Of a stretch of DNA of 64,000 nucleotides, positions 10,920 to 32,006 are shown in pieces. The stretch spans positions 11,663 to 75,662 of the forward strand of contig JAJZFS010000076.1 in NCBI GenBank assembly GCA_021805245.1, read 5' to 3'. The notes under the pieces are model-generated. The model saw only the letters and a list, made by a program, of their open reading frames with translations. It was not told the DNA's origin and did no database searches. Numbering within the stretch: position 1 is the stretch's first letter; each line of letters begins with the position of its first letter. The stretch comes from Pseudomonadota bacterium. Its GTDB lineage: Bacteria; Pseudomonadota; Alphaproteobacteria; Micavibrionales; UBA2020. The position numbers and the translations under genes were made by a program.

Positions 10920-13593
10920 GGGAGCAACGTTTCTGTTTCCGTGGCTGCTCGGCGCGCTGGTCGTGCTGCCGGCGCTGTGGTGGCTGTTGCGCGTCCTGCC
11001 GCCAAGGCCGAAGACGATAAAATTCCCCGCGTTTTTTCTTCTCAAAGACATCGGAACGAAGCGCAAAACGGCGGCGCGCGCGCCGTGGTGGCTTTTGCTG
11101 TTGCGCTGTCTTGTCGCCGCGCTGTTCATTTTCGCGTTTGCCGAGCCGGTGCTGCATCCGGCGGCGCGGCTTTCCGCCGCGAAGCGGGGCGATGTTTTGA
11201 TCGTGTTCGATAACGGCTGGGCGTCTGCCAGCCACTGGCAGGCGCGCATCGCGAAGCTCGATGATATGCTCGCGCAGATCGGGCGCAGCGGCAGACCTGT
11301 CGTCATCATCCCGACCGCGCCGTCAGCGCAAGACGGGCATGTGCACAGCATCGGGCCGATGGAGGCGGAACAGGCGCTGAAATGGGCGGGGCGGCTCGCG
11401 CCGCAGCCGTGGCCGACCGCGCCGGACAAGGCCGCCGCATTGGTCAAAACAGTGCGACCGGTCAGCTATGCGGTTCTCTTCAGCGACGGCGTCACGCCTG
11501 ACGCGCTGGACTCGCGAAATCTGCTGAAAAGCATGAATGCCGTGGTGATGGACGATTACGTCAACACCCCCCTCATTCTCCGGCAGGAGGACAGCACGCA
11601 TTATTCCGTCGAACGGTTGCATGCCGCGAAACACGCGGAAACGGTTACAGTCGCGGCTTATACGACGGCTGGCGATATCGCCGACGAAACAAAGGCCGTT
11701 TTGCCGGCCGGAGACAAAAATATAAGTTTCACGTGGAACATGCTGCCGCAGGTGCGAGGCAAAACGGCGCGTCTTGTGATCAACGGCGCGGACATGGCCT
11801 CCGCCGTCTTTCTCGCCAATACGCAGTGGCGGCAACGGACGGTCGGCATCATCGCGCCGACGGCGGAACAGCAAAACCGCGATTTTCTGAGCGGTGCTTA
11901 TTACATCCGCCGCGCGCTGGAGCCGGAGAGCCAAATGACTGTCGGCCCTCTTGCCAGTCTTCTCAAAAAACATGAAGCCGTGCTGATCTTGCCCGACAGC
12001 GCGGCGCTGACCATGCCGGAAAAAGAAGAGTTGCGGCACTGGGTCGACGGGGGCGGGTTTTTAATCCGCTTCGCAGGCCCGAACCTCGCTGCGCACAGCG
12101 AGGACGATCCGTTGCTGCCGGTCCCGCTGCGCGCGGGCGCGCGGGCGATGGAAGGCGCGATGACGTGGGAGAACCCCGTGCATCTCGGGGCCATTTCCAA
12201 GCAAAGTCCGTTGTATGGTCTGCCGCCGTCGCCGGACACGACGGTCGCGCGGCAGGTATTGGCCGACCCGACGCAGGCGGTCTTCGCGAAAACATGGCTT
12301 CAGCTTGCCGACGGCACGCCGCTTATTACAGGCAGCGCCACGGGCAAAGGCACGCTTGTTCTCGTGCATACGACGGCGGGGCCGACATGGTCGAACTTCT
12401 GCTATTCAGGTTTATATGTCGCGGCTTTGCGGCGGATGGTGAGTTTGAGCAACGGGATTACCGGCTACAAAACGCAAACGGCGCTGCCGCCGTTGTCGTT
12501 GCTGGATGGTTTCGGCCACCTCGCGCCGCCGGACAACAATGCGATTGTCAAGAATATCGCGCCGCATGAAAATTTTTTCCCGACGCCGCAAACGCCGCCT
12601 GGGCTCTACGGCAGTGCACTGGATTTTTCAGCCTTTAATCTTGGCAACGCATTGTCGCATATGCAGCCGCTCGACAATATTCCCTCGGCGGTGACGGTCG
12701 AGTCTTACAATAAAACCGGCGGGCATGATTTGAAGCCTTTGCTGCTCAAATGGGCGATCCTTTTGCTGCTTGCCGACACGCTGGTGACACTGCGTTTGCG
12801 CGGGCTTATGGCGCTGCTGGCTTTTCTGCCGCTGCTGTTTTCCACGCCCGCCGTCGCGGCGCAGCCGCCGCCGGAGAAACTTGTCTCGGGGCTTTATCTT
12901 GCCTATATCAAAACGGGCGATGCCGCCATCGATCATATAAGCCGTGACGGCCTGGAAGGGTTGGGCAGCGAGATCAGCCTGCGCACGGCGGCGCAGGTCG
13001 GCGGCGTGGTCGGGGTCGATCCGGACAAGGACAATCTCGCTTTTTATCCCGTGATCTACTGGCCGATGACGGGCGCCGAGCCGGACCTTGACAAGCGTGC
13101 CGCCGCCAACATTCAGAACTACATCAATCAGGGCGGGTTGATTTTGTTCGACACCAGCGCAGGACAGTTCAACAATGCGCAGTTCGGAGACGACACCGGA
13201 TCGACGCCGGGCTTGCGCGCGCTGCGCCGTCTGACGCGTGACATCGATATTCCTGCGCTGGCACGGATCGGGAAGGACAATATCCTCACCAAAAGTTTTT
13301 ACCTGTTGCAGGATTTCCCGGGGCAATTCGACAGCGGCACGCTCTGGGTCGAAAAAGAACCGAGCCCGCTGCATGACGGCGTGACGTCGGTGGTAATCGG
13401 CGGCAACAATTGGGCGGCGGCATGGTCGCAAGACAACGGCGACCGCGCACGCTATCTCGTTCAGCCGGGCGGCGAGGCACAGCGCGAGATGGCCTACCGC
13501 TTCGGCATTAACCTGATCATGGTCGCGCTCACCGGAAATTATAAGGCGGACCAGGTCCATACGCCTTACATTCTCAAGAGGCTCGGACAATGA
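10912..13593 (+). CDS. membrane protein with a BatA-type N-terminal double-TM domain and a DUF4159-like C-terminus
   Basis: FLFPWLLGALVVLPALWWLLRVLPPRPKTIKFPAFFLLK resembles the aerotolerance-regulator N-terminal domain. The C-terminal region fits the conserved cluster that follows DUF58. Confidence 0.75.
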   Translation: MLEGATFLFPWLLGALVVLPALWWLLRVLPPRPKTIKFPAFFLLKDIGTKRKTAARAPWWLLLLRCLVAALFIFAFAEPVLHPAARLSAAKRGDVLIVFDNGWASASHWQARIAKLDDMLAQIGRSGRPVVIIPTAPSAQDGHVHSIGPMEAEQALKWAGRLAPQPWPTAPDKAAALVKTVRPVSYAVLFSDGVTPDALDSRNLLKSMNAVVMDDYVNTPLILRQEDSTHYSVERLHAAKHAETVTVAAYTTAGDIADETKAVLPAGDKNISFTWNMLPQVRGKTARLVINGADMASAVFLANTQWRQRTVGIIAPTAEQQNRDFLSGAYYIRRALEPESQMTVGPLASLLKKHEAVLILPDSAALTMPEKEELRHWVDGGGFLIRFAGPNLAAHSEDDPLLPVPLRAGARAMEGAMTWENPVHLGAISKQSPLYGLPPSPDTTVARQVLADPTQAVFAKTWLQLADGTPLITGSATGKGTLVLVHTTAGPTWSNFCYSGLYVAALRRMVSLSNGITGYKTQTALPPLSLLDGFGHLAPPDNNAIVKNIAPHENFFPTPQTPPGLYGSALDFSAFNLGNALSHMQPLDNIPSAVTVESYNKTGGHDLKPLLLKWAILLLLADTLVTLRLRGLMALLAFLPLLFSTPAVAAQPPPEKLVSGLYLAYIKTGDAAIDHISRDGLEGLGSEISLRTAAQVGGVVGVDPDKDNLAFYPVIYWPMTGAEPDLDKRAAANIQNYINQGGLILFDTSAGQFNNAQFGDDTGSTPGLRALRRLTRDIDIPALARIGKDNILTKSFYLLQDFPGQFDSGTLWVEKEPSPLHDGVTSVVIGGNNWAAAWSQDNGDRARYLVQPGGEAQREMAYRFGINLIMVALTGNYKADQVHTPYILKRLGQ

Positions 13594-21541: not shown

Positions 21542-22807
21542 ATGCAGCTAACCGAGCTAAACGTTAAAAACGCCAAGCCCAAAGCCAAGATGTACAGGCT
21601 TGCGGACGGTGACGGGCTTTATTTGCAGATAACCCTCAAAGGCGGGAAATATTGGCGCTTCCGCTATTTTTTCGCAGGGCGAGAAAAAATGCTGGCGCTG
21701 GGGACGTATCCGGAAGTTTCCTTGGCCGAGGCGCGGGACAAGCGCCATGAGGCGCGGAAGGCGGTTGCGGCGGGTACAGACCCGGGCGCGGCCAAGCAGG
21801 AAGAAAAACGGCGGGCGGTATTCAATGCCGACAATACCTTTGAGGCAGTGGCCAAGGAATGGTTTGAGAATAACAAGCCCAAATGGACGAAGGAACACGC
21901 CGAGCGGCTATGGCGGCGCATTGAAATCCATCTTGTCGCGGAACTGGGCAAGCGCCCGATAGCCGACATTTCCACGCTGGAACTGCTGAATACGATCAGG
22001 AAGGTTGAAGCCCAGAAAATCACGCGCGGGGATGGGCACCTGAAACGGCGGGGCGGGACGGAAGTTTCGCACCGTGTTTTGCAAACTGCCAGTTCCATTT
22101 TCAATTATGCCATTGTGACAGAGCGTATGACGAATAATCCGGCCTATCCCTTGCGGGATGGCCGCGCCCTGAAACCGCACAAGGCCAAGAATTACCCGAC
22201 GATCACGGCCAAGGAACTTCCGGAGTTTTTGCAACGACTGGACGAGGCAAAAACCAGCTTGCAAAACAAGCTGGCTATCCGGCTTATGCTGTTGACCTTT
22301 ATCCGCACTGGAGAACTGCGGAAATCGACATGGAAAGACGTTGATTTAGAGGCCAAGGAATGGCGGCTTCCGGCGGAAATCACGAAAATGCGGGATGAGC
22401 ACATTGTCCCGCTTTCCAGTCAAGCCGTGGCGCTTTTCAAGGAATTGCATAAAATGAATGGACATCGTGAATTACTGTTTCCGCCGCAGCAACACCGGAA
22501 ACACATGCTTATGAGCGAGAACACGATCAACATGGTGATAAAGCGCATGGGTTACGAAGGAAGGATGGTAGGCCACGGCTTCCGCGCCCTTGCATCTACG
22601 ACATTGAATGAGCTGGGCTATCCGCCGGACGTTATCGAGCGGCAGTTAGCCCATGCCGAGCGCAACAAAATCCGTGCCGCCTATAACCGCGCCGAATATT
22701 TACCCCAGCGCCGGAAGATGATGCAGGAATGGGCGGATTATATCGACAAAATCGCGGCAAGTGGAAACGTGGTGGCCGGAAAATTTGGCAAAAAGGCAAG
22801 GGCTTAA
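21542..22807 (+). CDS. int: tyrosine recombinase/integrase, P4-like with a DUF4102-type N-terminus
   Basis: LTELNVKNAKPKAKMYRLADGDGLYLQI...GGKYWRFRY N-terminus. C-terminal catalytic region with HGFRALASTTL and LAH...AYNRAEY (R..HxxR..Y). Confidence 0.95.
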   Translation: MQLTELNVKNAKPKAKMYRLADGDGLYLQITLKGGKYWRFRYFFAGREKMLALGTYPEVSLAEARDKRHEARKAVAAGTDPGAAKQEEKRRAVFNADNTFEAVAKEWFENNKPKWTKEHAERLWRRIEIHLVAELGKRPIADISTLELLNTIRKVEAQKITRGDGHLKRRGGTEVSHRVLQTASSIFNYAIVTERMTNNPAYPLRDGRALKPHKAKNYPTITAKELPEFLQRLDEAKTSLQNKLAIRLMLLTFIRTGELRKSTWKDVDLEAKEWRLPAEITKMRDEHIVPLSSQAVALFKELHKMNGHRELLFPPQQHRKHMLMSENTINMVIKRMGYEGRMVGHGFRALASTTLNELGYPPDVIERQLAHAERNKIRAAYNRAEYLPQRRKMMQEWADYIDKIAASGNVVAGKFGKKARA

Positions 22808-23875: not shown

Positions 23876-24047
23876 TTTGCCCTTAACGGGTTGACAGCAC
23901 GTTAAGGGATTTTAAGGGCAAGCCCGATGGTTGTTGATGAAACCTATTGGCGGCCATCGGGTGAGCTTTGCTCATTTTTGCCCTTAAAACAAATGCTGTC
24001 TCTGCGCGAAGCGCATGGTGCGCTTCTCGCATTTGTTCAACCCTTAA
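23876..24047. promoter_or_regulatory. iteron-like TTAAGGG/CCCTTAA repeats plus a GC-rich hairpin (candidate origin or operator)
   Basis: Five copies of the 7-mer at 23880-86, 23902-08, 23912-18, 23981-87 and 24041-47, plus the inverted repeat GCGAAGCGCA-TGG-TGCGCTTCTCGC at about 24005-24029. Confidence 0.35.
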
Positions 24048-24064
24048 TGACAGGAGAATCTATC

Positions 24065-24427
24065 ATGTCAATTATTGGAAATCTAAAACCCGTAAGAAAC
24101 GGTGCTAATGAGGAACTTCATGGAGAAATTAAAACACTCCAATTCTCTGTGAAGGTTCGTCTTGTGCCTGAACTTATAAAAACGAATGACCAGTCGCCGG
24201 ATTATAAAATCTTTGCGTTTGGTTCCACTGGAGAACTCACGGAAATCGGGGCTGCTTGGCAAAAAACCAAGCAAACGCCCGGAGAGCCGGATTTCGAGTT
24301 CCTCAGCATTACGATTGACGACATGTCGTTTCCCAATGCGCTTAACGTCGCAGCTTTCAAAAATAAGCAGGGCGGATGGGATATTACATGGCGTCGCCGT
24401 TTAACAACGGCACAAAGTGCAGCATAG
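24065..24427 (+). CDS. DUF736-family protein
   Basis: MSIIGNLK...LHGEIKTLQFSVKVRLVP......DYKIFA.....EIGAAWQK...G..FLSITIDD.SFP..LNVAAF matches the DUF736 pattern. An AGGAG SD precedes the ATG at 24065. Confidence 0.8.
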   Translation: MSIIGNLKPVRNGANEELHGEIKTLQFSVKVRLVPELIKTNDQSPDYKIFAFGSTGELTEIGAAWQKTKQTPGEPDFEFLSITIDDMSFPNALNVAAFKNKQGGWDITWRRRLTTAQSAA

Positions 24428-24490: not shown

Positions 24491-25648
24491 ATGGACTTGA
24501 TATATCAAAATTTTGACGGGCTCGATGTTACGTTTCAGGGGATCGTGCCGGAATATATTTTGAAGCAACTGGAAGCGGCACGGCTGGAGGCGGAAACTAA
24601 CCGCCATCCTGTCACGATTAAACTTGGATACGCCAAAATTCCCGTGGCCGTGGCTGAAAGCGGCATGAGGGGCGGATACCGTTACCGTTTTGATACGGGG
24701 CTAGACGGTGAAACATGGTGTATCGCTAACTCGGATGACCCCGAACAATGGAATATCCGGGTGTCTGTGAAAAGTCTTTCCTTGGCATTGCATGGCTATG
24801 AGGGCGTAAAAGAGCGTCTTTACGATATGTTGGAAAAGCTGGGAGCTACTGGCTCAGGGGAAGTAAACCCGAAAACCGGAGAAGTGTACGATTTGCCCAG
24901 AGAGGCTATTAGCCGCGTTGATTATTGTTTTGACTTCAAAACGGATAATTTTGAAATCAAGCCGGAAAATTTAATCGCCCATAGCCGCTGCAAAAAACAA
25001 TATTTATTACCCCAAGAAGTTGTTTCTACGGGGCGGCATATCACTTATTCAAGAATTGGCTCAATGCCAAATAAACAAATTGTTTTATATGATAAAATCC
25101 GTGAAATTCAGGAGAAAAACAAGGTTTTTTGGTGGCGGATATGGGGAATTGAAAAAAATAATTTTTCTCAAAAAATATTCCGGCTTGAAGTCCGCGCCGG
25201 AAAGAAGGAATTAAAAAATTGGAATTTGCGGACATTTGAGGATTTTGAAGAAAAAATAGGGGATTTGATTTTAACAATCCTCAAAGAAATAAAATATGTT
25301 GAGCCAAATTTAAACGATAAAAATATGGGGCGTTGGCCTTTGGCTGATTTTTGGCGAAAAGCCCAAAAAGCGGCAAAAGATACCCTTAAAAAATATATTT
25401 CCAATGCAAAAAGAAAATCCGTGGTGGAAGAATATAAAAATATTCTTATTGAGCGCTATAAAAAACAAATTTCCGGCATGCTTCCGGCCTATTCCGCGAT
25501 TATCGGTAAAGATGATGTGGCTCAAATACCCGGGGTATTGGAGGATTTGGCGAATGAGATTTCTCAGCAACCCAAGAAAAATAAATCAAAAATGCAGAGA
25601 AAAATAAAAAAGGCTCAGAATAAATTTATTTTTTTGGACGAAAAATAA
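24491..25648 (+). CDS. replication initiation protein (Rep_trans/phage CRI-like)
   Basis: Pattern recalled for Rep_trans: N-terminal FDGLDVTF, ISRVDYCFDF, ITYSRIGS...IVLYDKIREI, FRLEVRAGKKEL. Assigned from memory, not a profile search. Confidence 0.55.
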   Translation: MDLIYQNFDGLDVTFQGIVPEYILKQLEAARLEAETNRHPVTIKLGYAKIPVAVAESGMRGGYRYRFDTGLDGETWCIANSDDPEQWNIRVSVKSLSLALHGYEGVKERLYDMLEKLGATGSGEVNPKTGEVYDLPREAISRVDYCFDFKTDNFEIKPENLIAHSRCKKQYLLPQEVVSTGRHITYSRIGSMPNKQIVLYDKIREIQEKNKVFWWRIWGIEKNNFSQKIFRLEVRAGKKELKNWNLRTFEDFEEKIGDLILTILKEIKYVEPNLNDKNMGRWPLADFWRKAQKAAKDTLKKYISNAKRKSVVEEYKNILIERYKKQISGMLPAYSAIIGKDDVAQIPGVLEDLANEISQQPKKNKSKMQRKIKKAQNKFIFLDEK

Positions 25649-25664
25649 CAACGCTAGAAATATT

Positions 25665-26879
25665 CTATTCTTCTGGCCATTCAAATTTTGAATATTTTTT
25701 ATTTATCTCAAGAAATATATCTGCAAGAATTTCTAATTCATTTTCGGAATTTTTCTTTAGAAATTTAATCGTCGCATTTTGGCATTTTCTAAGAAGGTGA
25801 GTTTTTTTAAGGTTTTTATATTCATCGTAACAAATGTCTCCATATAAAGTATTCTCCGACCAACACCCCCATGTTTTTTGATGAGGGCTGTCAATTAATT
25901 CAAAGAAAAGATCGTGGAATTTGAACCGATGTTTAAAGTCTTTTAGTTTGGAGTAATGTAACTCCATTTCGCCATGTATAGAATTTAGTATGAGGATTTT
26001 GAGCAGGGACAAAGAAAGGGCTGTATTTTTATTTTGCGTTTTTCTTTTGTTTTTTGTTTGCCATGCCTTGTCGCAAGCTAAAATGCTTAATAATTTGATG
26101 ACGTTTAAAACTTTCGGTAAGACATCAACGCCTTGGGTAACGGGATAATCAGAATCTAACATTTCTTCTAAATTATAATTTTCTGCATTCTTTTCTAGGG
26201 TTTGATCAATCCATGAAAGAAATGGTGCGGCATTATATGAATCTAAATATTCTTGTTTCCTTCTATCGGATATTTTTTTTCTTGGCTCGTTTAATGTTTT
26301 TAGAAATTTTTTCTGCCTTGATACGAATTCTTTCCCCTTCTCTTTTTGAAGTAACTTCCATATGAAGCTAACATCATGATCAAGCTTTCTATTGTTGCAT
26401 TTGGGGCATGCAAGAAAAATGTTGTCGGGCCATTCTGTCCCTGAATTGGAAAGGGGAATGATATGTTCTATATCAAAGCATTTTTTGCCCTTGCTATTAG
26501 TTAATGGGGCATTGCAATAAGCACAGTTTCCAGCTTGTAGCTCAAATAGTAATTCTATGTCTGTTTTTGTATAGAAACCTTCGGCCATTCGTTCTCTGAC
26601 ATGTCTCATTTTTGAGTGAACGGCTCTATTTTCTCTTTTTATGATGGCGTTTATTTCTTCACGCATGGAATAGGGGGCAATGAGAGATGTTTCCTTTCCA
26701 CAAGAAGGGCATTCATCCTCTGGGACAAATTCAGACTTACAGTATTGGCAAACGGTATTCTTTTTTAACCACGCAACGGTTTTTGGTTTGAGGTCGGAGA
26801 ATGCATGCGGAGGTTTGTTGGATAAGCGGTCAAACCTAATAAGGCATCCCGTTATCCCTTCGCTACAGAAAAGAGACAT
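25665..26879 (-). CDS. HNH endonuclease domain protein with an N-terminal zinc ribbon and an unknown C-terminal half
   Basis: CQYCKSEF..EDECPSCG (CxxC...CxxC). The HNH core is CAYCNAPL...FDIEHIIPLSNSGTEWPDNIFLACPKCNNRK. A GGGAGG SD lies 5 nt upstream of the ATG. Confidence 0.8.
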   Translation of the reverse strand: MSLFCSEGITGCLIRFDRLSNKPPHAFSDLKPKTVAWLKKNTVCQYCKSEFVPEDECPSCGKETSLIAPYSMREEINAIIKRENRAVHSKMRHVRERMAEGFYTKTDIELLFELQAGNCAYCNAPLTNSKGKKCFDIEHIIPLSNSGTEWPDNIFLACPKCNNRKLDHDVSFIWKLLQKEKGKEFVSRQKKFLKTLNEPRKKISDRRKQEYLDSYNAAPFLSWIDQTLEKNAENYNLEEMLDSDYPVTQGVDVLPKVLNVIKLLSILACDKAWQTKNKRKTQNKNTALSLSLLKILILNSIHGEMELHYSKLKDFKHRFKFHDLFFELIDSPHQKTWGCWSENTLYGDICYDEYKNLKKTHLLRKCQNATIKFLKKNSENELEILADIFLEINKKYSKFEWPEE

Positions 26880-26891
26880 GTGGCCTCCCGC

Positions 26892-26929
26892 ATAAGCAAA
26901 AGGTCACCAGAGCGAATTCTCTGGTGACC
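26892..26929 (-). terminator. intrinsic-terminator-like hairpin about 20 nt upstream of the HNH start
   Basis: The minus strand reads GGUCACCAGAG-AAUUCG-CUCUGGUGACC (perfect 11-bp stem) followed by UUUUGCUUAU. Confidence 0.45.
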
Positions 26930-27095
26930 GGGAGTTAAGAAGCTGTAGCAATACAGCCGCGACGGCCTTTAGCCGTGAGGCTTGGACATACGCCGCCGCC
27001 TCCCGGCCATAAGGTCGAGAAGCGGCGTGATGACGGACACGCCACCGATTGCTACGGGGTTCTTAAGTCCCGAGAGCACCGTTAAGTACTCTATG
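26892..27095 (-). ncRNA. candidate structured RNA (leader/riboswitch-like or stand-alone sRNA), class unknown
   Basis: A GC-rich ~200-nt block in the AT-rich island. A 14-bp long-range helix (26930-43 with 27058-71) encloses several perfect hairpins and is followed immediately by the terminator hairpin. A TATAAT lies at 27102-27107 on the minus strand. Confidence 0.4.
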
Positions 27096-27100
27096 GATGA

Positions 27101-27112
27101 AATTATATAATT
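27101..27112. promoter_or_regulatory. palindromic AATTATATAATT giving back-to-back TATAAT -10 boxes
   Basis: TATAAT reads on the minus strand at 27107-27102 (toward the RNA and HNH gene) and on the plus strand at 27106-27111 (toward the 27160 ORF). Confidence 0.3.
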
Positions 27113-27941: not shown

Positions 27942-28550
27942 TTAGGGTTTTTTTCTTTTTCCTAGAATACGTTCTATCCAAAAGGCAAGGCCTCTTAATG
28001 TTAATTGTTGTGGTGAATTAAAAGACATTTTTTGAAATTTATCCCCATACTTTTTATTGGAAGATGCTTTGTTTTTTCTTACCAGTTGTCGGCAAGCCTG
28101 CAGGGTCTCCCAAGGGGTCAGATTTAAGCTTTCTGCTAAAATTGTATATTCGACAAACTTATTTTCAGGTAACGAATCGAAGACCATGTTTTCTGTAGTG
28201 ATGGAAATGACATCCCAAGATTCATCTATTTCTTCGTCTATTCCACTGCTGCACCAAAATATATTGCTGTTCCACACAATAAAATGAGAGCCGCAGGCGC
28301 TGTCACGCCAGTACGAGGGGTAAAGTGTGAGCCCGCGAGGCTGAAGATAAAGTCTCCATGCAGGTCCCGCGCGCCTGTCAAGGTTAATAAGTAAGTCGTC
28401 GCCACATCCACAGGGACAGCGCATTATAAGAAGTCGAGGATGCCCCCTTTCTACAATTACAGCATCTCCACTTTTCTTTAAAAGAGAAAACGCAGCATCT
28501 CTACTCTCTACTTTTCCTTGAAAGAAAATTTGTCGTGAACGGTCTATCAT
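27942..28550 (-). CDS. DUF6527-like Cys-rich (metal-binding) protein with a possible C-terminal winged-helix region
   Basis: MRCPCGCGDDLLINLD ... LTLYPSYWRDSACGSHFIVWNSNIFWC matches the recalled DUF6527 pattern. It is the last gene of the Ubl operon, starting 3 nt after the previous stop. Confidence 0.65.
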   Translation of the reverse strand: MIDRSRQIFFQGKVESRDAAFSLLKKSGDAVIVERGHPRLLIMRCPCGCGDDLLINLDRRAGPAWRLYLQPRGLTLYPSYWRDSACGSHFIVWNSNIFWCSSGIDEEIDESWDVISITTENMVFDSLPENKFVEYTILAESLNLTPWETLQACRQLVRKNKASSNKKYGDKFQKMSFNSPQQLTLRGLAFWIERILGKRKKP

Positions 28551-28553
28551 TTC

Positions 28554-30035
28554 TTATATCTGCTTATGAAGATATTTTGTAATTCTTTCCGCTACCACTA
28601 GGGCATATGCGTGACGATTGAATGCCAATTCTTTCAATTCCTTATTTTTTGCCATCTCATTGTTTAAGCGAGCGAATCTTAACAAGTAAGCTACCAAAAC
28701 AGCGCTCGCCTCTTTCTCCGTACAGTCGCATCCTAGGGGGATATGACGAATTTCTCTGATAGCCTTCCTTAACCAAGAAAAACGATTAGGCCTTTTTTCG
28801 GCTGCAGGAGGGCGGTGAAAGAAAGGTTCTTTATATATTTCATCTACAAATGATTTCCATTGGTTCCAGTCGGATTTTGAATCATCTTTCTCTGTTCCAA
28901 ATACAAGACTTACCTCCAAAGTAGCTGGATCTGCAGAAATTGGGCCATCTTCTATATTTAAGAAGTCGATTAAAATAGCGTCCTTTCCTCTGACCATGAT
29001 ATTACCTGCATGCAAGTCCCCATGACATGGGGTAATGCAGGTAATATCATCCTGCAGAATCTTATCTAGCATATCTTCTATTTTTTTGGGGGATGACTTT
29101 AACCCAAGCTTTTGGGCCTTTTTAATGACAGGAGACTTTAACCCGTCTATCCAAGCCCTATCTTTGACAAAATCAAACAATTTTTGTGTGCGCTTCTCTA
29201 GTTTATTTGCAGGCTGTATCCTGAAGCCCTTTAGGCTATGTTCAAAAAGAGAAAAGAGTGTGCCGTTCCCTTGATTAGATTGCAGGACTGATCTGAGCGG
29301 GCGGGAGTCCTCAACAAAGTTGCCTACTAACGCAGACATTTTTTCAGAATTTATACATCTTCCTTTATCAATATTGGGGCGGAGATAGAATGGTATATAA
29401 AAATCTGCATAATATTCGTAGTTTTGTAATTCTTTAGAAATCCGATCAGATTTATCTATTTTTATAAAGAAAGGTAATGGCCTTGGACCAATTATTGATC
29501 GTTTCAGCCATGCATGCACGCAATAAACTCCTGCAGCTACCCTTCCGCCGCCCAAAGGCTCTATATAAATCCGGTCACAGTCACTAAACGCACGTTGAAG
29601 AAAATGTTTTATAGGTAAGGATAATTTAGGTCCTTCTTTAATTATCTTGGGGTCCCCAACTGGGGGGCCGGGATCATAGTGATTTAAAAATTCTGCAGCA
29701 TTTTCGATTCCGCCTTGAGAATAGAGCCTGTCGTCTCCCAGCTTTAGTTCATCTAATAGATTTTTAAGTGGCAATAAGTGGGAATCTGTTTCTGCCACTG
29801 TAATAAGCGAAAGCCCATACTGTGATGATATTGGTCTTAATTCTTCAATATGCTGTCTAATCACTCCAATTTTTTTAGCGGTTTCTGCTATTATCACCCC
29901 ACATGCCTCATTGGCACCAATACTTACATCCTGGCATTTCACGTTTATAAGATTAAGATTGCGAAATGCAAACGGACGATCTTGTATAGGCAGATCGCCC
30001 ACTAGGAGTACATTCCTTCGTGCGGGGTATTTCAT
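28554..30035 (-). CDS. unknown N-terminal alpha/beta domain fused to an APH/protein-kinase-like fold domain
   Basis: The ATG at 30035 lies 2 nt after the E1 stop. Kinase-fold motifs: G-loop EPLGGGRVAAGVY, FFIKID (Lys192), HGDLHAGNIMV (H338/D340/N345), ILIDF (D357). Confidence 0.7.
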   Translation of the reverse strand: MKYPARRNVLLVGDLPIQDRPFAFRNLNLINVKCQDVSIGANEACGVIIAETAKKIGVIRQHIEELRPISSQYGLSLITVAETDSHLLPLKNLLDELKLGDDRLYSQGGIENAAEFLNHYDPGPPVGDPKIIKEGPKLSLPIKHFLQRAFSDCDRIYIEPLGGGRVAAGVYCVHAWLKRSIIGPRPLPFFIKIDKSDRISKELQNYEYYADFYIPFYLRPNIDKGRCINSEKMSALVGNFVEDSRPLRSVLQSNQGNGTLFSLFEHSLKGFRIQPANKLEKRTQKLFDFVKDRAWIDGLKSPVIKKAQKLGLKSSPKKIEDMLDKILQDDITCITPCHGDLHAGNIMVRGKDAILIDFLNIEDGPISADPATLEVSLVFGTEKDDSKSDWNQWKSFVDEIYKEPFFHRPPAAEKRPNRFSWLRKAIREIRHIPLGCDCTEKEASAVLVAYLLRFARLNNEMAKNKELKELAFNRHAYALVVAERITKYLHKQI

Positions 30036-30037
30036 GT

Positions 30038-31363
30038 CTAATCTTGCCGTGCAGGAAGGGGCCATTCATTTGCTCTACAGATAGCTCCTGATGGAGAGCA
30101 AACTATGCATGTAGGATGTGGAGTGCAGAGGGCAGGACGGCATATGCCTTTTATCGCGTTGTAATTTAAAAACCTTGGAGTGCCCGGAACGCCTATGACT
30201 GTATTTAAAAACATAGTTACAGCTAGTGAAGCAATCGTGCTATTAAGAGATATTACTGAAGGTGCTGGTTCTGTATCTCCTATAATATAAGGATCCATTT
30301 GCCGTTCGAAATCAGTCAATAAATCTCGTCTTATTTCTTCCGAATCCAACAGATTCCCGCAGACCATACAAGCCAAGCCCGGAGCAAAAAGCTGAGTGCG
30401 TCCCACAATATCTGTTACAAGCCCCTTTTGGGCAGATATAGCAACGCCCATATCTATGCAGGGAACTAAATATTGATACGAGAATTGGTTGAGAACTGCC
30501 CGGCTGCCGTGTGAGTCGGTGCAACAAAAGACGAAGTCCGTATCAGCAAGTAACTTCACGACAGCTTCTTTAAGGATGCTATCTCTTTGCGTTTCAATGT
30601 TTGCTGTACTATTAAGCTTTTTCCCCCAAGAGGCCGCAACATCTGCCTTAAACCTTCCTACATCTTCTGGGGTGGCTCCAACAAGCCTATTTAGATTGGT
30701 TTCTTCTATCGTGTCGGGATCAATTAATAAAAAGTCTTGTACACCCAGATGTAAAAGAGACTGTAAAACTACAGACCCAGTTCCTCCTAATCCTACAATG
30801 CCCACGCGTATTGATTTCAGGGTCTGTTGCCCGAGGGCTCCAAAGGCGCGTATTTGGCGATCATATCGAGGGTCTTTTTCTTTTTCTAATCCTGTTTCTC
30901 CAAAAGTAATTTGTGGGCCAATGCCTAATACTCTTAATGGATTTTTTTTACCTAGTTCTCTTGCAATAGCCACCTCTGGAGTAATCAACATGGCGGCATG
31001 ACGGGCATGAGGCGCTCGACCCGCTAGAAAATAGGATAGTTCTGTTTCCCCCGCATCATCTGTCGCAGAGAAGTGATTGAGCGAAAATGGGTGAGTATGT
31101 ACAAAGGTTATAGACTCTCCAGTCTTTCGTGCTCTTTGAGCGACTTCAGAAACTATTTCTGGGCGAAGTTGAGCGCTTACTGTGGTACGCTCCTCATAGA
31201 GTTTAATCGGGGGAGTAAGGGCTTCTCTAATTACTATACGACTAAGCTTTTTATTTGTTTCAACTGAACGTCCAAAAAGTATAGCGCATGTTTCATTTTC
31301 GTCTTTTAGTAAATCTTTTCTAAGACGGGTTAATAACTCTGATGTAAGTACAAGCCTGCTCAT
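30038..31363 (-). CDS. JAB/JAMM metallopeptidase :: ThiF/E1-like adenylyltransferase fusion
   Basis: Complete JAMM motif: E24 ... H89-T-H91-x7-S99-x2-D102. E1 module: VGIVGLGGTGS (GxGxxG), DPDTIEETNLNRL, CxxC pairs ACMVCG and TCIVCS. Confidence 0.85.
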   Translation of the reverse strand: MSRLVLTSELLTRLRKDLLKDENETCAILFGRSVETNKKLSRIVIREALTPPIKLYEERTTVSAQLRPEIVSEVAQRARKTGESITFVHTHPFSLNHFSATDDAGETELSYFLAGRAPHARHAAMLITPEVAIARELGKKNPLRVLGIGPQITFGETGLEKEKDPRYDRQIRAFGALGQQTLKSIRVGIVGLGGTGSVVLQSLLHLGVQDFLLIDPDTIEETNLNRLVGATPEDVGRFKADVAASWGKKLNSTANIETQRDSILKEAVVKLLADTDFVFCCTDSHGSRAVLNQFSYQYLVPCIDMGVAISAQKGLVTDIVGRTQLFAPGLACMVCGNLLDSEEIRRDLLTDFERQMDPYIIGDTEPAPSVISLNSTIASLAVTMFLNTVIGVPGTPRFLNYNAIKGICRPALCTPHPTCIVCSPSGAICRANEWPLPARQD

Positions 31364-31737
31364 CGGGGGTCTTGCAACCTGCGTTTTATAACGTACAAGT
31401 AGGTTAAAAGGTTATCATTATTTGGGTTCCAAGAGCTTACATGCCATGAAAACCAAAGATGGGGCGTGGATACATGTGGTATAGCATTAGGCCCTGTATT
31501 CTGCGGCTGGGCGCCATTAGCTAGCTTTAAATCCGCATCTGTCCAGAAACAGTCTGGCCGTGCGAGGGGGTATCCTACAGGGGCAATAAATTTTACACTA
31601 ACTTGATTTTTTGACCACCCAGTAGGGAGGTCTATGGATGGAACAGTAATTAAGTGACTGCCATCTGGCAGCCCCTCCAAGGTTGCTTGCATTTGGGAAG
31701 CAAAAAGTAACTGGAATTGTTGCTCCAGCGGTGTCAT
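31360..31737 (-). CDS. E2/UBC-like protein (Prok-E2_E-like)
   Basis: 125 aa with a single Cys (Cys63) in GYPLARPDCFWTD. Its position between the Ubl and E1 genes, with ATGA overlaps on both sides, supports the call. Confidence 0.7.
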   Translation of the reverse strand: MTPLEQQFQLLFASQMQATLEGLPDGSHLITVPSIDLPTGWSKNQVSVKFIAPVGYPLARPDCFWTDADLKLANGAQPQNTGPNAIPHVSTPHLWFSWHVSSWNPNNDNLLTYLYVIKRRLQDPR

Positions 31738-32006
31738 ATAAGCCCAAAGCTGGCTGGTGGAACTGTATAAAAGCGTTTAGGGCCCTTATCCTTTTCTAAA
31801 GAGATACTCGTGTCATCATTTATTAATTGATCGGGGGTATCTCCGTGCCCTTCAAGGTATAAAGCATATCCGCGTTTGGCTTCAGGCAATTTTGCTTTAA
31901 TAGCTAGTCCTGTAATATGAGCGCTATCCGATTCATATTTAATGCTGTCTACGAAGTAAAAAAAATCTTCTTTCTTAGTAGCTTCTTTTCCGTCTTCCTT
32001 TGACAT
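31734..32006 (-). CDS. ubiquitin-like beta-grasp protein (single Multiubiquitin-like domain)
   Basis: 90 aa. FYFVDSIKYESDSAHITGLAIKAKL...YALYLEG...D..ISL...RFYTVPPASFG-LI resembles the Multiubiquitin family pattern. It is the first gene of the operon. Confidence 0.65.
   Translation of the reverse strand: MSKEDGKEATKKEDFFYFVDSIKYESDSAHITGLAIKAKLPEAKRGYALYLEGHGDTPDQLINDDTSISLEKDKGPKRFYTVPPASFGLI

Follow-up and report, generated by a model that had tools for sequence, protein, structure and literature searches.

A GC-rich segment on the minus strand of the window (the whole 64-kb stretch of DNA that was analysed) lies upstream of a gene for an HNH nuclease, and was originally predicted to be a structured RNA element (26892-27095) ending in a terminator just ahead of that gene. 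All main features of this prediction are present in the sequence. The gene encodes a 404-aa HNH endonuclease (25665..26889, minus strand, including the Shine-Dalgarno (SD) sequence GGGAGG at 26889-26884; ATG at 26879), and directly upstream of its ribosome-binding site (RBS) lies an intrinsic terminator (26898..26929, minus strand), which consists of an 11-bp stem (26929-26902) followed by UUUU (26901-26898), with the tail given as UUUUGCUUAU in a consensus scan. At the opposite end, a -10-like TATAAT hexamer (27102..27107, minus strand) marks the presumed promoter, and TAnnnT-like hexamers occur at an equal distance upstream of the 5' hairpin in related loci; since a consensus scan of the element region gave no canonical -35/-10 pair, this promoter is proposed as a candidate. 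Judging from these signals, the segment is probably transcribed as a regulatory RNA of about 200 nt, which would start near 27095 and end at the terminator near 26898. The 5'-terminal hairpin P1 (AGAGUACU-UAAC-GGUGCUCU, 27073..27092, minus strand) appears in the minimum free energy (MFE) fold, and relatives have a hairpin at this position that aligns poorly (57% paired). No tandem repeats were found in 26892-27095, and tRNA/tmRNA detection in the element was negative.

The checks suggested along with the prediction included folding of both strands, a search for homologs with analysis of covariation, and an Rfam covariance search. The minus strand (27110-26880) folds at -107.9 kcal/mol, compared with -73.3 +/- 4.1 kcal/mol for shuffled sequences (z = -8.5, equalled by none of 200 shuffles), and the plus strand of the same region gave z = -5.5. 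Using a pattern that fixed 20 bases of the core and left the helices free to vary, at least 139 related loci were found (19 on viral contigs and at least 120 on genome contigs); the invariance of those 20 bases among the relatives is therefore by construction. The element contains a C4/Xcc1-like three-way-junction core of 87 nt (26926..27008, minus strand), which was defined by the covariance model R1 and by covariation in 128 distinct relatives; the window core scores 91.1 bits with R1 and is the sole match, in a single copy, in the 64 kb. In the core alignment, the closing helix A pairs GGCCGGGAG (27008-27000) with CUCCCGGUC (26934-26926), the P2 stem pairs 26999-26992 with 26966-26959, and two hairpins follow, P3 (26981-26972) and P4 (GCTGTA-GCAA-TACAGC, 26957-26942). 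Two conserved unpaired segments were recognized, CGUAUGUCCA (26992-26983) and UAAAGG (26971-26966), the latter forming an internal loop. The dominant closing helix, P2 and P3 were absent from the original prediction.

Covariation across this core is extensive, and the GC-rich stretch is a genuine, strongly conserved and previously unannotated structured RNA gene. Among 27 scored pairs in the 128 distinct sequences, 95.6% of cells are paired (73.1% in shuffled data and at most 50% with slid partners), compensatory double changes occupy 721 cells versus 215 in shuffles, and the covariation score of 0.608 (0.188 when shuffled) was reached by none of 500 shuffles. Two of the hairpins initially proposed covary in the family, namely P4 and a further hairpin, P5 (GGCGUG-N8-CACGCC, 27024..27043, minus strand), which is 93% paired with double changes in five of its six pairs. 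By contrast, the bases of the proposed hairpin ACGGC-CTTTA-GCCGT belong, in the family, to the P2 stem and the UAAAGG internal loop. The minus-strand reading is borne out by a ratio of G.U to A.C pairs of 464:14 in the relatives, by pairing of 95.6% in the minus sense versus 82.4% on the opposite strand, and by U5-U7 runs that follow a terminator-like hairpin in the same sense in relatives. This asymmetry led to rejection of an ssDNA-promoter or STAXI-like reading, in which the region would not encode an RNA and would instead fold as single-stranded DNA of a mobile element, for example as a single-strand initiation site or leading-region ssDNA promoter. Some relatives do occur on conjugative plasmids, in the vicinity of relaxase, ParB and ArdC genes; however, DNA hairpins would not tolerate such strand-specific wobble, the terminators with U-tracts are of RNA type, boxes within the family pair with SD sequences (see below) and the related sRNA-Xcc1 is a detected transcript (PMC2996969), which leaves such a structure hardly conceivable.

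The relatives are found mostly on alphaproteobacterial plasmids, islands and prophages and, among the matches listed, are confined to mobile DNA. BLAST searches with the element returned 23 plasmid matches and none in phages. One relative lies directly upstream of traM in Ti plasmids (the element of pTiC58 occupies 150,023-150,109), and nearly all loci with a callable ORF (112/145) have a gene with an SD sequence downstream, on the same strand and at tight spacing. The products of these genes include TraM, ECF sigma factors, lipoproteins, ORF6N/BRO-type (antirepressor-like) proteins and many more. When 4,363 ORFs surrounding 145 loci were clustered all against all, no universal neighbour protein emerged; the largest clusters (TraR, TraM, ECF sigma factors and Ti tra genes) were each present in subsets of loci, and integrases alone recur in the neighbourhoods of the window subfamily. 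In one Ti plasmid, a ProQ/FinO gene adjoins the element. QfsR, a known Ti-plasmid sRNA, was considered as a possible identity and discarded, as it occupies another locus and is not matched by R1.

The leader of the element carries two boxes that are complementary to segments of the core. Box a1 (UUAAGAA, 27060..27066), located in the loop of a GGG/CCC hairpin, is the complement of a' (UUCUUAA, 26935..26941) in the single-stranded linker that joins P4 to the 3' strand of helix A, while box b1 (GUAGCAAU, 27048..27055) is the complement of b' (AUUGCUAC, 26945..26952) in the loop and 3' arm of P4, all on the minus strand. Only one such bipartite site exists in the window, where 0.02 would be expected by chance. 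In 20 relatives of the window subfamily, a1:a' is 97.1% paired with double changes in 6/7 pairs and the 8-bp b1:b' pairing (GTAGCAAT/ATTGCTAC) is 95.6% paired with double changes in 7/8, so that 13 of the 15 pairs show double changes. The 8-nt pairing of 26945-52 with 27048-55 that had been noticed earlier is thus b1:b', and a proposed 14-bp long-range helix survives as its 7-bp core, a1:a'. Among the relatives listed, an exact two-part complement in the proper order, 13 nt or longer, was present in 80% of cognate leaders versus 1.8% of non-cognate ones, with a'b'-leader duplex energies of -23.7 and -16.8 kcal/mol, respectively.

Mutually exclusive or pseudoknotted pairings, as anticipated in the original prediction, are present in the element. 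A further leader strand, termed anti-A (CCGCUUCUCG, 27016..27025, minus strand), can pair in the full-transcript MFE fold with 27005-26996, which comprises the 5' strand of helix A and the start of P2. The previously proposed ACGCCGC/GCGGCGT pairing falls within this anti-A hairpin, which is 96% pairable in relatives; the alignment of relatives revealed no covariation in either the anti-A or the GGG/CCC hairpin, both of which are pairable and should be regarded as unproven. The full transcript reaches -102.0 kcal/mol using a1b1:a'b' together with the anti-A hairpin and -87.7 kcal/mol when the three-way junction is forced, whereas the 5'-trimmed RNA folds as junction plus terminator (-56.8 kcal/mol).

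Mutually exclusive folds and highly conserved unpaired core nucleotides might also be expected of a riboswitch or attenuator, in which CGUAUGUCCA...UAAAGG would bind a ligand or protein and set helix A against anti-A and a1b1:a'b', and hence termination (26929-26898) and HNH expression. The family indeed combines one core with differing 3' platforms (some members have a terminator, others SD pairing), as is typical of riboswitch classes, and the first four bases of the terminator, GGUC, are common to helix A. However, helix A and the terminator have just 2-4 nt in common, the relatives revealed no covarying antiterminator, the search pattern itself accounts for part of the invariance of the core, and the elements are confined to mobile DNA upstream of genes with no common function (TraM, sigma factors, lipoproteins, antirepressor-like proteins and HNH). 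Furthermore, the platform that pairs with the SD consists of sequence-specific copies of a1/b1, implying an antisense rather than an aptamer logic. On balance, ligand- or protein-controlled attenuation appears rather improbable, and the metabolite riboswitch implied by the original prediction is unlikely in view of the widely varying downstream genes, the orphan nature of the HNH protein and the covariation of the variable loops with target boxes in cis.

The SD-pairing platform was detected in part of the family. Second copies of the boxes, a2/b2, lie over the downstream SD in 13.8% of cognate downstream regions versus 1.0% of non-cognate ones among the relatives listed, with b2 abutting GGAG where present. 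A family-wide test of duplexes between a'b'-type segments and downstream regions was not significant (-16.4 vs -15.9 kcal/mol), and the downstream-duplex signal is driven by one subfamily only. Neither pattern searching nor duplex scanning of the two strands of the window (64 kb) revealed an a2/b2 or trans target, the only match being the leader of the RNA itself; a2/b2 were also absent from the collected loci of the window subfamily. Apart from the trivial antisense-strand match, the 6-8 kb flanking the relatives likewise contained no second target site.

A trans-acting role has been described for sRNA-Xcc1 and for the Xylella sXF RNAs, and the window RNA might likewise be a stand-alone sRNA with its own terminator that base-pairs with host or island mRNAs, with help from Hfq or ProQ, the HNH gene being merely the next gene. 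The strong terminator after the RNA and the HNH RBS, which has no target box, would fit such a role, as would the discrete nature of sRNA-Xcc1, an 88-nt RNA confirmed by Northern analysis in X. campestris (PMC2996969), the ProQ/FinO gene next to one Ti-plasmid element and the dependence of TraM protein on Hfq (PMC4201532). On the other hand, a' and b' are hypervariable and covary with the boxes of their own leader, unlike a seed conserved against a host target, the searches of the window and of the relatives' flanks returned no second site, and in nearly all loci with a callable ORF the next SD follows closely on the same strand. An independent trans-acting function is therefore considered unlikely.

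The terminator is followed by a gene whose product is an orphan. No homologs of the HNH protein other than itself were found among 5.8 billion proteins, and the three metagenome contigs carrying the gene represent the same island with at most one mismatch. PADLOC toxin-antitoxin models gave no match, and only generic HNH, PtuB and Cas9-HNH similarities were observed. The order of promoter, structured RNA, intrinsic terminator and nuclease gene is shared with the type III toxin-antitoxin system ToxIN, and in Xanthomonas integron cassettes Xcc1 precedes the toxin gene symE (bioRxiv 10.1101/2025.06.18.660453), raising the idea that the RNA is an antitoxin that neutralises the HNH nuclease as ToxI does ToxN. 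This is very improbable, given that the RNA is present in the window as a single copy free of tandem repeats, that its family is tied to no single protein family and has no conserved protein partner, that its specificity loops pair with RNA boxes, and that the HNH protein is an orphan with no PADLOC toxin-antitoxin match. More generally, the original prediction had tied the RNA to the HNH gene as its leader or partner; the same RNA precedes unrelated genes and the protein is an orphan, so that the RNA is not specific to HNH and a partnership with it is unsupported, and nothing supports an RNA-guided or RNA-partnered nuclease system at this locus or a new RNA-nuclease pair.

The prediction had also left the RNA unassigned to a known class. 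At gathering thresholds, Rfam identified only tRNA in the window. Below threshold, the sRNA-Xcc1 model (RF02221) matched the element over its full length on the minus strand with 37.7 bits (cut-off 53; E = 5e-5 in a 601-nt search), and two relatives with 39.3 and 30.7 bits, likewise full-length and on the same strand. Reciprocally, R1 gave matches (E = 1e-4 to 3e-3) to genuine Xcc1 loci, whose Rfam scores are 69-73 bits, and aligned globally to them. As judged by these reciprocal sub-threshold model matches, the window RNA is a divergent relative of sRNA-Xcc1. The two share strand, a length of about 87 nt and the three-way-junction topology, in which a closing helix surrounds a long arm (stem, internal loop and hairpin) and one more hairpin, with a 6-7-nt linker after it, and both lie directly upstream of a same-strand mobile-element gene, such as the ORF6N gene in APSE phages in the case of Xcc1 (bioRxiv 10.1101/2020.03.17.996009). 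Of three genuine Xcc1 loci that were examined, two (L146 and L145, the latter ahead of a BRO gene) also have the layout of a1b1, a'b' and a2b2, with a2/b2 over the SD. They differ in the conserved core (AAUACAAUACCCG...GGGGAA in Xcc1 versus CGUAUGUCCA...UAAAGG in the window family), in the P5, anti-A strand and separate terminator hairpin after helix A that are added in the window subfamily, and in hosts, which are mainly Alphaproteobacteria for the window family whereas Xcc1 occurs on plasmids and prophages of several proteobacterial classes and in Xanthomonas integron cassettes. In addition, Xcc1 has been described as a virulence-linked sRNA acting in trans and not as a C4-like cis module.

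A similar architecture is known from the C4 antisense RNA of phages P1 and P7 (RF01695 and RF03163, clan CL00128). According to PMC5320573 (citing Hartmann 1995), C4 is cut by RNase P from a longer transcript at the GG(W) that starts the closing stem, and the a' and b' loops of mature C4 occlude the RBS. In the P1 record the annotated order is a1, b1, c4, a2, b2, icd, and P1 C4 folds with the same topology as the window core, with a' at an equal position and an end in CCACC. Shared features are a closing helix that begins with GG after (U)UAU (UUAU/GG at 27012-27007 in the window), a pair of hairpins, the second of which holds b' in its loop, a single-stranded linker that contains a', a1/b1 boxes in the leader of the same transcript, an RCC(A) tail after the closing helix and, for part of the window family only, a2/b2 over the RBS of the next gene. 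However, covariance-model similarity is lacking in either direction: neither the C4 nor the c4-a1b1 model matched the window at E <= 10 in a search that gave 68.8 and 51 bits, respectively, for P1, and R1 did not match P1 c4. Moreover, the closing helix of the window family is split into helix A and P2 by a large conserved internal loop, and the window copy has an intrinsic terminator instead of a2/b2 ahead of a cargo that is not icd/ant. The link to C4 is one of architecture and not of demonstrated homology, and the absence of a2/b2 means that the defining antisense step cannot be shown for the window copy. IsrK of the Salmonella Gifsy-1 prophage (RF01394), which is described as occurring both as a small RNA and as a longer messenger RNA isoform (PMC4825925), is likewise a prophage leader RNA with C4-type boxes followed by a terminator, and the P1 leader between a1b1 and c4 gives a sub-threshold isrK match. 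It corresponds to the a1b1-plus-terminator part and not to the three-way-junction RNA, and RF01394 did not match the window.

Taken together, the element is best explained, with a probability of roughly 60%, as a structured regulatory RNA of a large unannotated mobile-element family, mainly alphaproteobacterial, that is a sibling of sRNA-Xcc1 with a C4-like build and works as follows. In the primary transcript, a1 and b1 would pair with a' and b' while the 5' half of the closing helix would be taken up by the further leader strand, so that the RNA would be self-masked. By analogy with C4, it may be cleaved between U27009 and G27008, where helix A begins with GG, perhaps by RNase P; the mature RNA so freed, about 110 nt long (27008 to ~26898), would refold to the three-way junction with a' and b' exposed; in complete systems these would pair with a2/b2 over the SD of the next gene and block translation. 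Directly 3' of helix A, the window copy carries ACCA (26922..26925, minus strand), an RCCA-type tail as in C4 and tRNA, and ACCA or GCCA occurs at this position in 19 of 132 relatives, which constitute the window's own subfamily. Processing by RNase P is suggested here only from the likeness to C4, and ACCA, lying inside the terminator stem, may be inaccessible to the enzyme. The window copy is a variant that keeps a1/b1 and ACCA, has no a2/b2 and has a terminator between the RNA and the orphan HNH gene. As HNH would be expressed only by read-through from the RNA promoter, the RNA probably limits HNH by termination and not by antisense pairing at the RBS.

A broader and more tentative proposal, which we hold to be somewhat less probable than not, is that the window RNA represents a large, mainly alphaproteobacterial and unannotated branch of a single C4/Xcc1 superfamily of portable antisense-RNA cassettes. 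If so, one architecture and a probable common mechanism would join sRNA-Xcc1, C4 and a third, unannotated family, and sRNA-Xcc1 would be a cis-linked, C4-like gatekeeper of mobile-element genes and not a virulence sRNA. Each cassette would comprise a promoter, a self-masking a1b1 leader and a processed tRNA-like RNA with two programmable specificity loops, by which plasmids, integrative islands and prophages may gate translation of, or read-through into, any downstream cargo, including traM of Ti plasmids, which encodes a quorum-sensing anti-activator. An undescribed post-transcriptional control would then act on traM, the brake on Ti quorum sensing and conjugation. Diversification of the boxes would keep related elements orthogonal, as in P1/P7 heteroimmunity, and the terminator-type variant that has no a2/b2 would be a new mode, acting on its own leader or on incoming relatives. 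The covarying a/b boxes would also constitute a natural library of orthogonal RNA-RNA pairs, which may be reusable as programmable translational repressors.

The element occupies the 217-bp gap that separates the HNH endonuclease ORF on the minus strand (25665-26879) from the 27160 ORF, inside an AT-rich island (approximately 33-47% GC versus roughly 50-65% over most of the flanking sequence), both as described in the original prediction. Folding of both strands gave -107.9 kcal/mol for the minus strand (27110-26880) versus -73.3 +/- 4.1 kcal/mol for dinucleotide shuffles (z = -8.5), and z = -5.5 against such shuffles for the plus strand. A consensus scan detected a single terminator-like site, the hairpin previously noticed before the HNH gene (minus strand, 11-bp stem 26929..26902, tail UUUUGCUUAU); the GGGAGG Shine-Dalgarno (SD) sequence of HNH (26889-26884, minus strand) lies 3' of it and is followed by the ATG at 26879. 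The TATAAT noted at 27107-27102 is present in the sequence, but the consensus scan returned no -35/-10 pair that met its criteria. The earlier failure to match the RNA to a known class holds at the Rfam gathering threshold, at which tRNA-Phe alone was reported and the element had no match, but not at a relaxed threshold, at which the whole model of sRNA-Xcc1 (RF02221) was covered by minus-strand positions 27008..26918 with 37.7 bits (E = 5e-5), below the cut-off of 53 bits.

Homologous regions are widespread. A BLAST search with 231 bp detected the core in 23 plasmids, including Agrobacterium Ti/At plasmids, where it lies upstream of traM, and Sphingobium and Novosphingobium plasmids, where its neighbors vary (a small ORF on one side and a large ParB/ArdC cluster on the other, a relaxase nearby, or a GGDEF gene following it). 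A pattern of 20 bases derived from these matches (window plus strand, CCTTT N10-16 TGGACATACG N9 CCCGG) occurred in 19 viral contigs and at least 120 genome contigs. Among the matches listed, the majority belonged to Sphingomonadales, Rhizobiales, Rhodospirillales, and Micavibrio-like bacteria, and a few to Verrucomicrobia, Bdellovibrio-like bacteria, and Magnetococcales; the first downstream ORF on the RNA strand differed at almost every locus (TraM, ECF sigma factors, lipoproteins, zinc-ribbon membrane proteins, and ORF6N/antirepressor-like proteins), and HNH was the downstream gene only in the window. The element is one member of a large RNA family that is not bound to HNH, and the partnership with the HNH nuclease proposed earlier is unsupported. 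A type III toxin-antitoxin system, with which the gene order agrees, is highly unlikely, as no repeats were found in the element and the family is without a conserved protein partner.

Alignment of 128 distinct core sequences (window part 27010-26924, minus strand), scored by RNAalifold and explicit pair counting, yielded four helices: helix A, which closes the structure, a long arm (P2) containing a conserved internal loop, a hairpin capping this arm (P3), and a second hairpin (P4). The search pattern itself imposes the invariance of its 20 bases in this alignment; the helices are unconstrained. Compensatory changes among homologs were abundant: 95.6% of core cells were paired versus 73.1% in column shuffles and at most 50% with partners slid, 721 cells were changed on both sides versus 215 in the control, and the covariation score of 0.608 (control 0.188) was reached by 0 of 500 shuffles. 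Up to six standard pair types were observed at single pairs, one of which had GC 41, CG 29, UA 27, AU 16, GU 8, and UG 6. A covariance model built from the alignment (R1) found one copy in the window, with 91.1 bits. G.U pairs outnumbered A.C pairs by 464 to 14, and pairing therefore amounts to 95.6% on the RNA strand and 82.4% on the opposite strand, an asymmetry that contradicts a structure formed by single-stranded DNA and makes that explanation extremely improbable. Close relatives have classical hairpin terminators with U5-7 in the same sense as the window minus strand, and an SD-bearing gene follows on the RNA strand in the family. Thus, the functional strand is the minus strand of the window, on which the Xcc1 match also lies.

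The core contains two hypervariable segments, the 7-8 nt linker from P4 to the 3' strand of helix A (a', 26941-26935, UUCUUAA in the window) and the loop region of P4 (b', 26952-26945, AUUGCUAC). Their complements, a1 (27066-27060, UUAAGAA) and b1 (27055-27048, GUAGCAAU), lie in the right order on the same minus-strand transcript, about 90-120 nt upstream, and this bipartite site is the only one in the 64-kb window (chance expectation 0.02). When 20 members of the window's subfamily were aligned over their full length, a1:a' was 97.1% paired with double changes at 6 of 7 pairs, and b1:b', the 8-nt pairing pointed out originally, was 95.6% paired with double changes at 7 of 8; the P5 hairpin between the two pairings covaried too. 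Across 123 members, 80% of cognate leaders versus 1.8% of non-cognate pairings contained an exact, correctly ordered bipartite complement of 13 nt or more, and the mean leader duplex energy was -23.7 versus -16.8 kcal/mol. Such variability of the would-be seeds, covarying with boxes in cis, speaks against a trans-acting sRNA, which would agree with the terminator and is considered unlikely. An alternative hairpin (anti-A) pairs 27025-27016 with 27005-26996, which comprise the 5' strand of helix A and the start of P2; its pairable fraction in relatives is 96%, yet it shows zero covariation. The unconstrained 201-nt transcript is predicted to adopt the masked fold (a1b1:a'b' plus anti-A) at -102.0 kcal/mol versus -87.7 kcal/mol with the three-way junction enforced, and an RNA starting at G27008 is predicted to fold into junction plus terminator (-56.8 kcal/mol).

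Downstream of the RNA and before the next start codon, a second copy of the boxes (a2/b2) was found in 13.8% of members versus 1.0% of non-cognate controls, mostly at prophage-type loci (e.g., L006, L007, L010, L012, L014, L015, L017-L019, L021, L110, and L117), and the b copy extends into the GGAG SD sequence (e.g., L010, UAGAAAGCAAUGCUGGAGACCGACAUG). Three genuine sRNA-Xcc1 loci (69-73 bits in Rfam), from a Pseudomonas plasmid, a Nitratidesulfovibrio plasmid, and Neisseria gonorrhoeae, were inspected; boxes were traced in the two plasmid loci, and both have the same three-part layout. At the Xcc1 locus L145, the loop region of P4 (CCUCUGCUUGG) is perfectly complementary to CCAAGCAGAGG, a stretch overlapping the SD of a BRO-family gene; upstream, UAAGAAAC...CAAGCAG precedes a hairpin and a U-run. 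R1 matched both plasmid Xcc1 domains and a weaker second Xcc1-like copy in the Neisseria locus (E = 1e-4 to 3e-3). A metabolite riboswitch could account for the conserved core and alternative folds, and is rather improbable given the heterogeneous cargo and a sequence-specific SD-pairing platform. The N. gonorrhoeae locus has two Xcc1-type elements (L147 2485-2570 and 2708-2780) about 220 nt apart, and five in tandem were reported in Xylella (PMC12189769).

The same arrangement is annotated for the C4 antisense RNA of phage P1, whose curated record lists, in order, promoters, 'putative a1' and 'b1' target sites, c4 RNA (77 nt), a2, b2 ('repression of icd ant translation'), and icd. The fold of P1 C4 has a closing helix and two hairpins (1 and 2), the second of which carries b' in its loop; next come single-stranded a' and the closing helix's 3' strand, with the end ...CCACC. 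This topology is common to C4, Xcc1, and the window core. In both P1 (AAUUAUGGUGGGG) and the window (CCUUAUGGCCGGG), (U)UAU|GG opens the closing helix, and an RCC(A) tail follows it (ACCA, 26925-26922, in the window; ACCA or GCCA in 19 of 132 relatives, the window's own subfamily); a hairpin plus U-run separates a1b1 from the RNA in P1 and in prophage-type members. According to one report, RNase P excises C4 from a longer transcript at the GG(W) opening the closing stem, and the a'/b' loops bind the target and occlude the ribosome-binding site (PMC5320573, citing Citron & Schuster 1990, Hartmann et al. 1995). The C4 and c4-a1b1 models had no match in the window, nor did R1 in P1; the resemblance to C4 is architectural only. 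With these cross-matches lacking, the element is filed as probably C4-like in its working and, with its score below threshold, as a distant Xcc1 relative. No published link between sRNA-Xcc1 and the C4 architecture was found in the literature searched, the names co-occurring just in annotation tables and lists.

On the reference Ti plasmid pTiC58 (NC_003065), R1 identified a member of 61.5 bits (150,023-150,109; 12524-12610 of the extracted locus L152) in the traH-traM spacer, 60 nt upstream of traM (L152 12672). Its core, CUCAUGUCCA, differs from the scan pattern, which therefore missed it, and the family thus exceeds the scan's count. No account of an RNA leader of traM was found in the literature searched; an hfq mutant reportedly has less TraM protein (PMC4201532). 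Judged by eye, a short GGUUGGA/GGUUAG at the traM SD tracks a' (UCCAAC/UCUAAC) in Ti-type members. The known Ti-plasmid sRNA QfsR is a separate locus without R1 match (L152 1576-1763; pTiC58 139,075-139,262); it adjoins a DUF736 gene, and the window island also has one.

This island starts at a tRNA-Phe and continues with a P4-type integrase (21542-22807), an AlpA-like gene, the DUF736 gene (23927-24427), and a Phage_CRI-type replication protein (24491-25648; whole segment 21305-25648); the tRNA 3' end, a repeat of which would mark the far end, does not recur in the window. On the same island, a minus-strand cluster at 27942-32006 comprises DUF6527, a TCAD9/APH-like kinase domain protein, an E1-like JAB-ThiF fusion, a Prok-E2_E protein, and a 90-aa ORF; it resembles a defense-type cassette for ubiquitin-like conjugation. 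The 404-aa HNH protein (333 aa according to other gene callers, which start 71 codons downstream) has a zinc-ribbon-like CxxC...CxxC at its N-terminus and a long, AT-rich C-terminal half without Pfam domain. No homolog except itself was found among 5.8 billion proteins, and the contigs carrying it represent the same island. Two independent metagenome assemblies of the island break exactly inside the RNA, at the position corresponding to 27036 of the window, which may stem from difficulty in assembling the GC-rich structured stretch or from a junction of variants.

The window copy has the leader boxes, masking strand, junction, ACCA, and terminator; a2/b2 are absent near the HNH ribosome-binding site and elsewhere in the 64-kb window, and a second box site was not found in the loci of this subfamily examined. 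Only about 20 nt separate the terminator U-tract from the HNH ATG, leaving no room for a promoter, so that HNH can be transcribed only by read-through of this terminator; its U-tract (U4) is weaker than those of relatives (U5-7). GGUC (26929-26926) is common to helix A and the terminator, and the two folds could thereby modulate read-through. Most likely, the self-masked precursor would be processed into a stable RNA of ~110 nt, with the terminator throttling the cargo gene. Candidate targets of the exposed loops in this subfamily are a1b1 of new transcripts (self-regulation) or related incoming elements. The interest of the element lies mainly in the family that it reveals rather than in a special link to the HNH nuclease.
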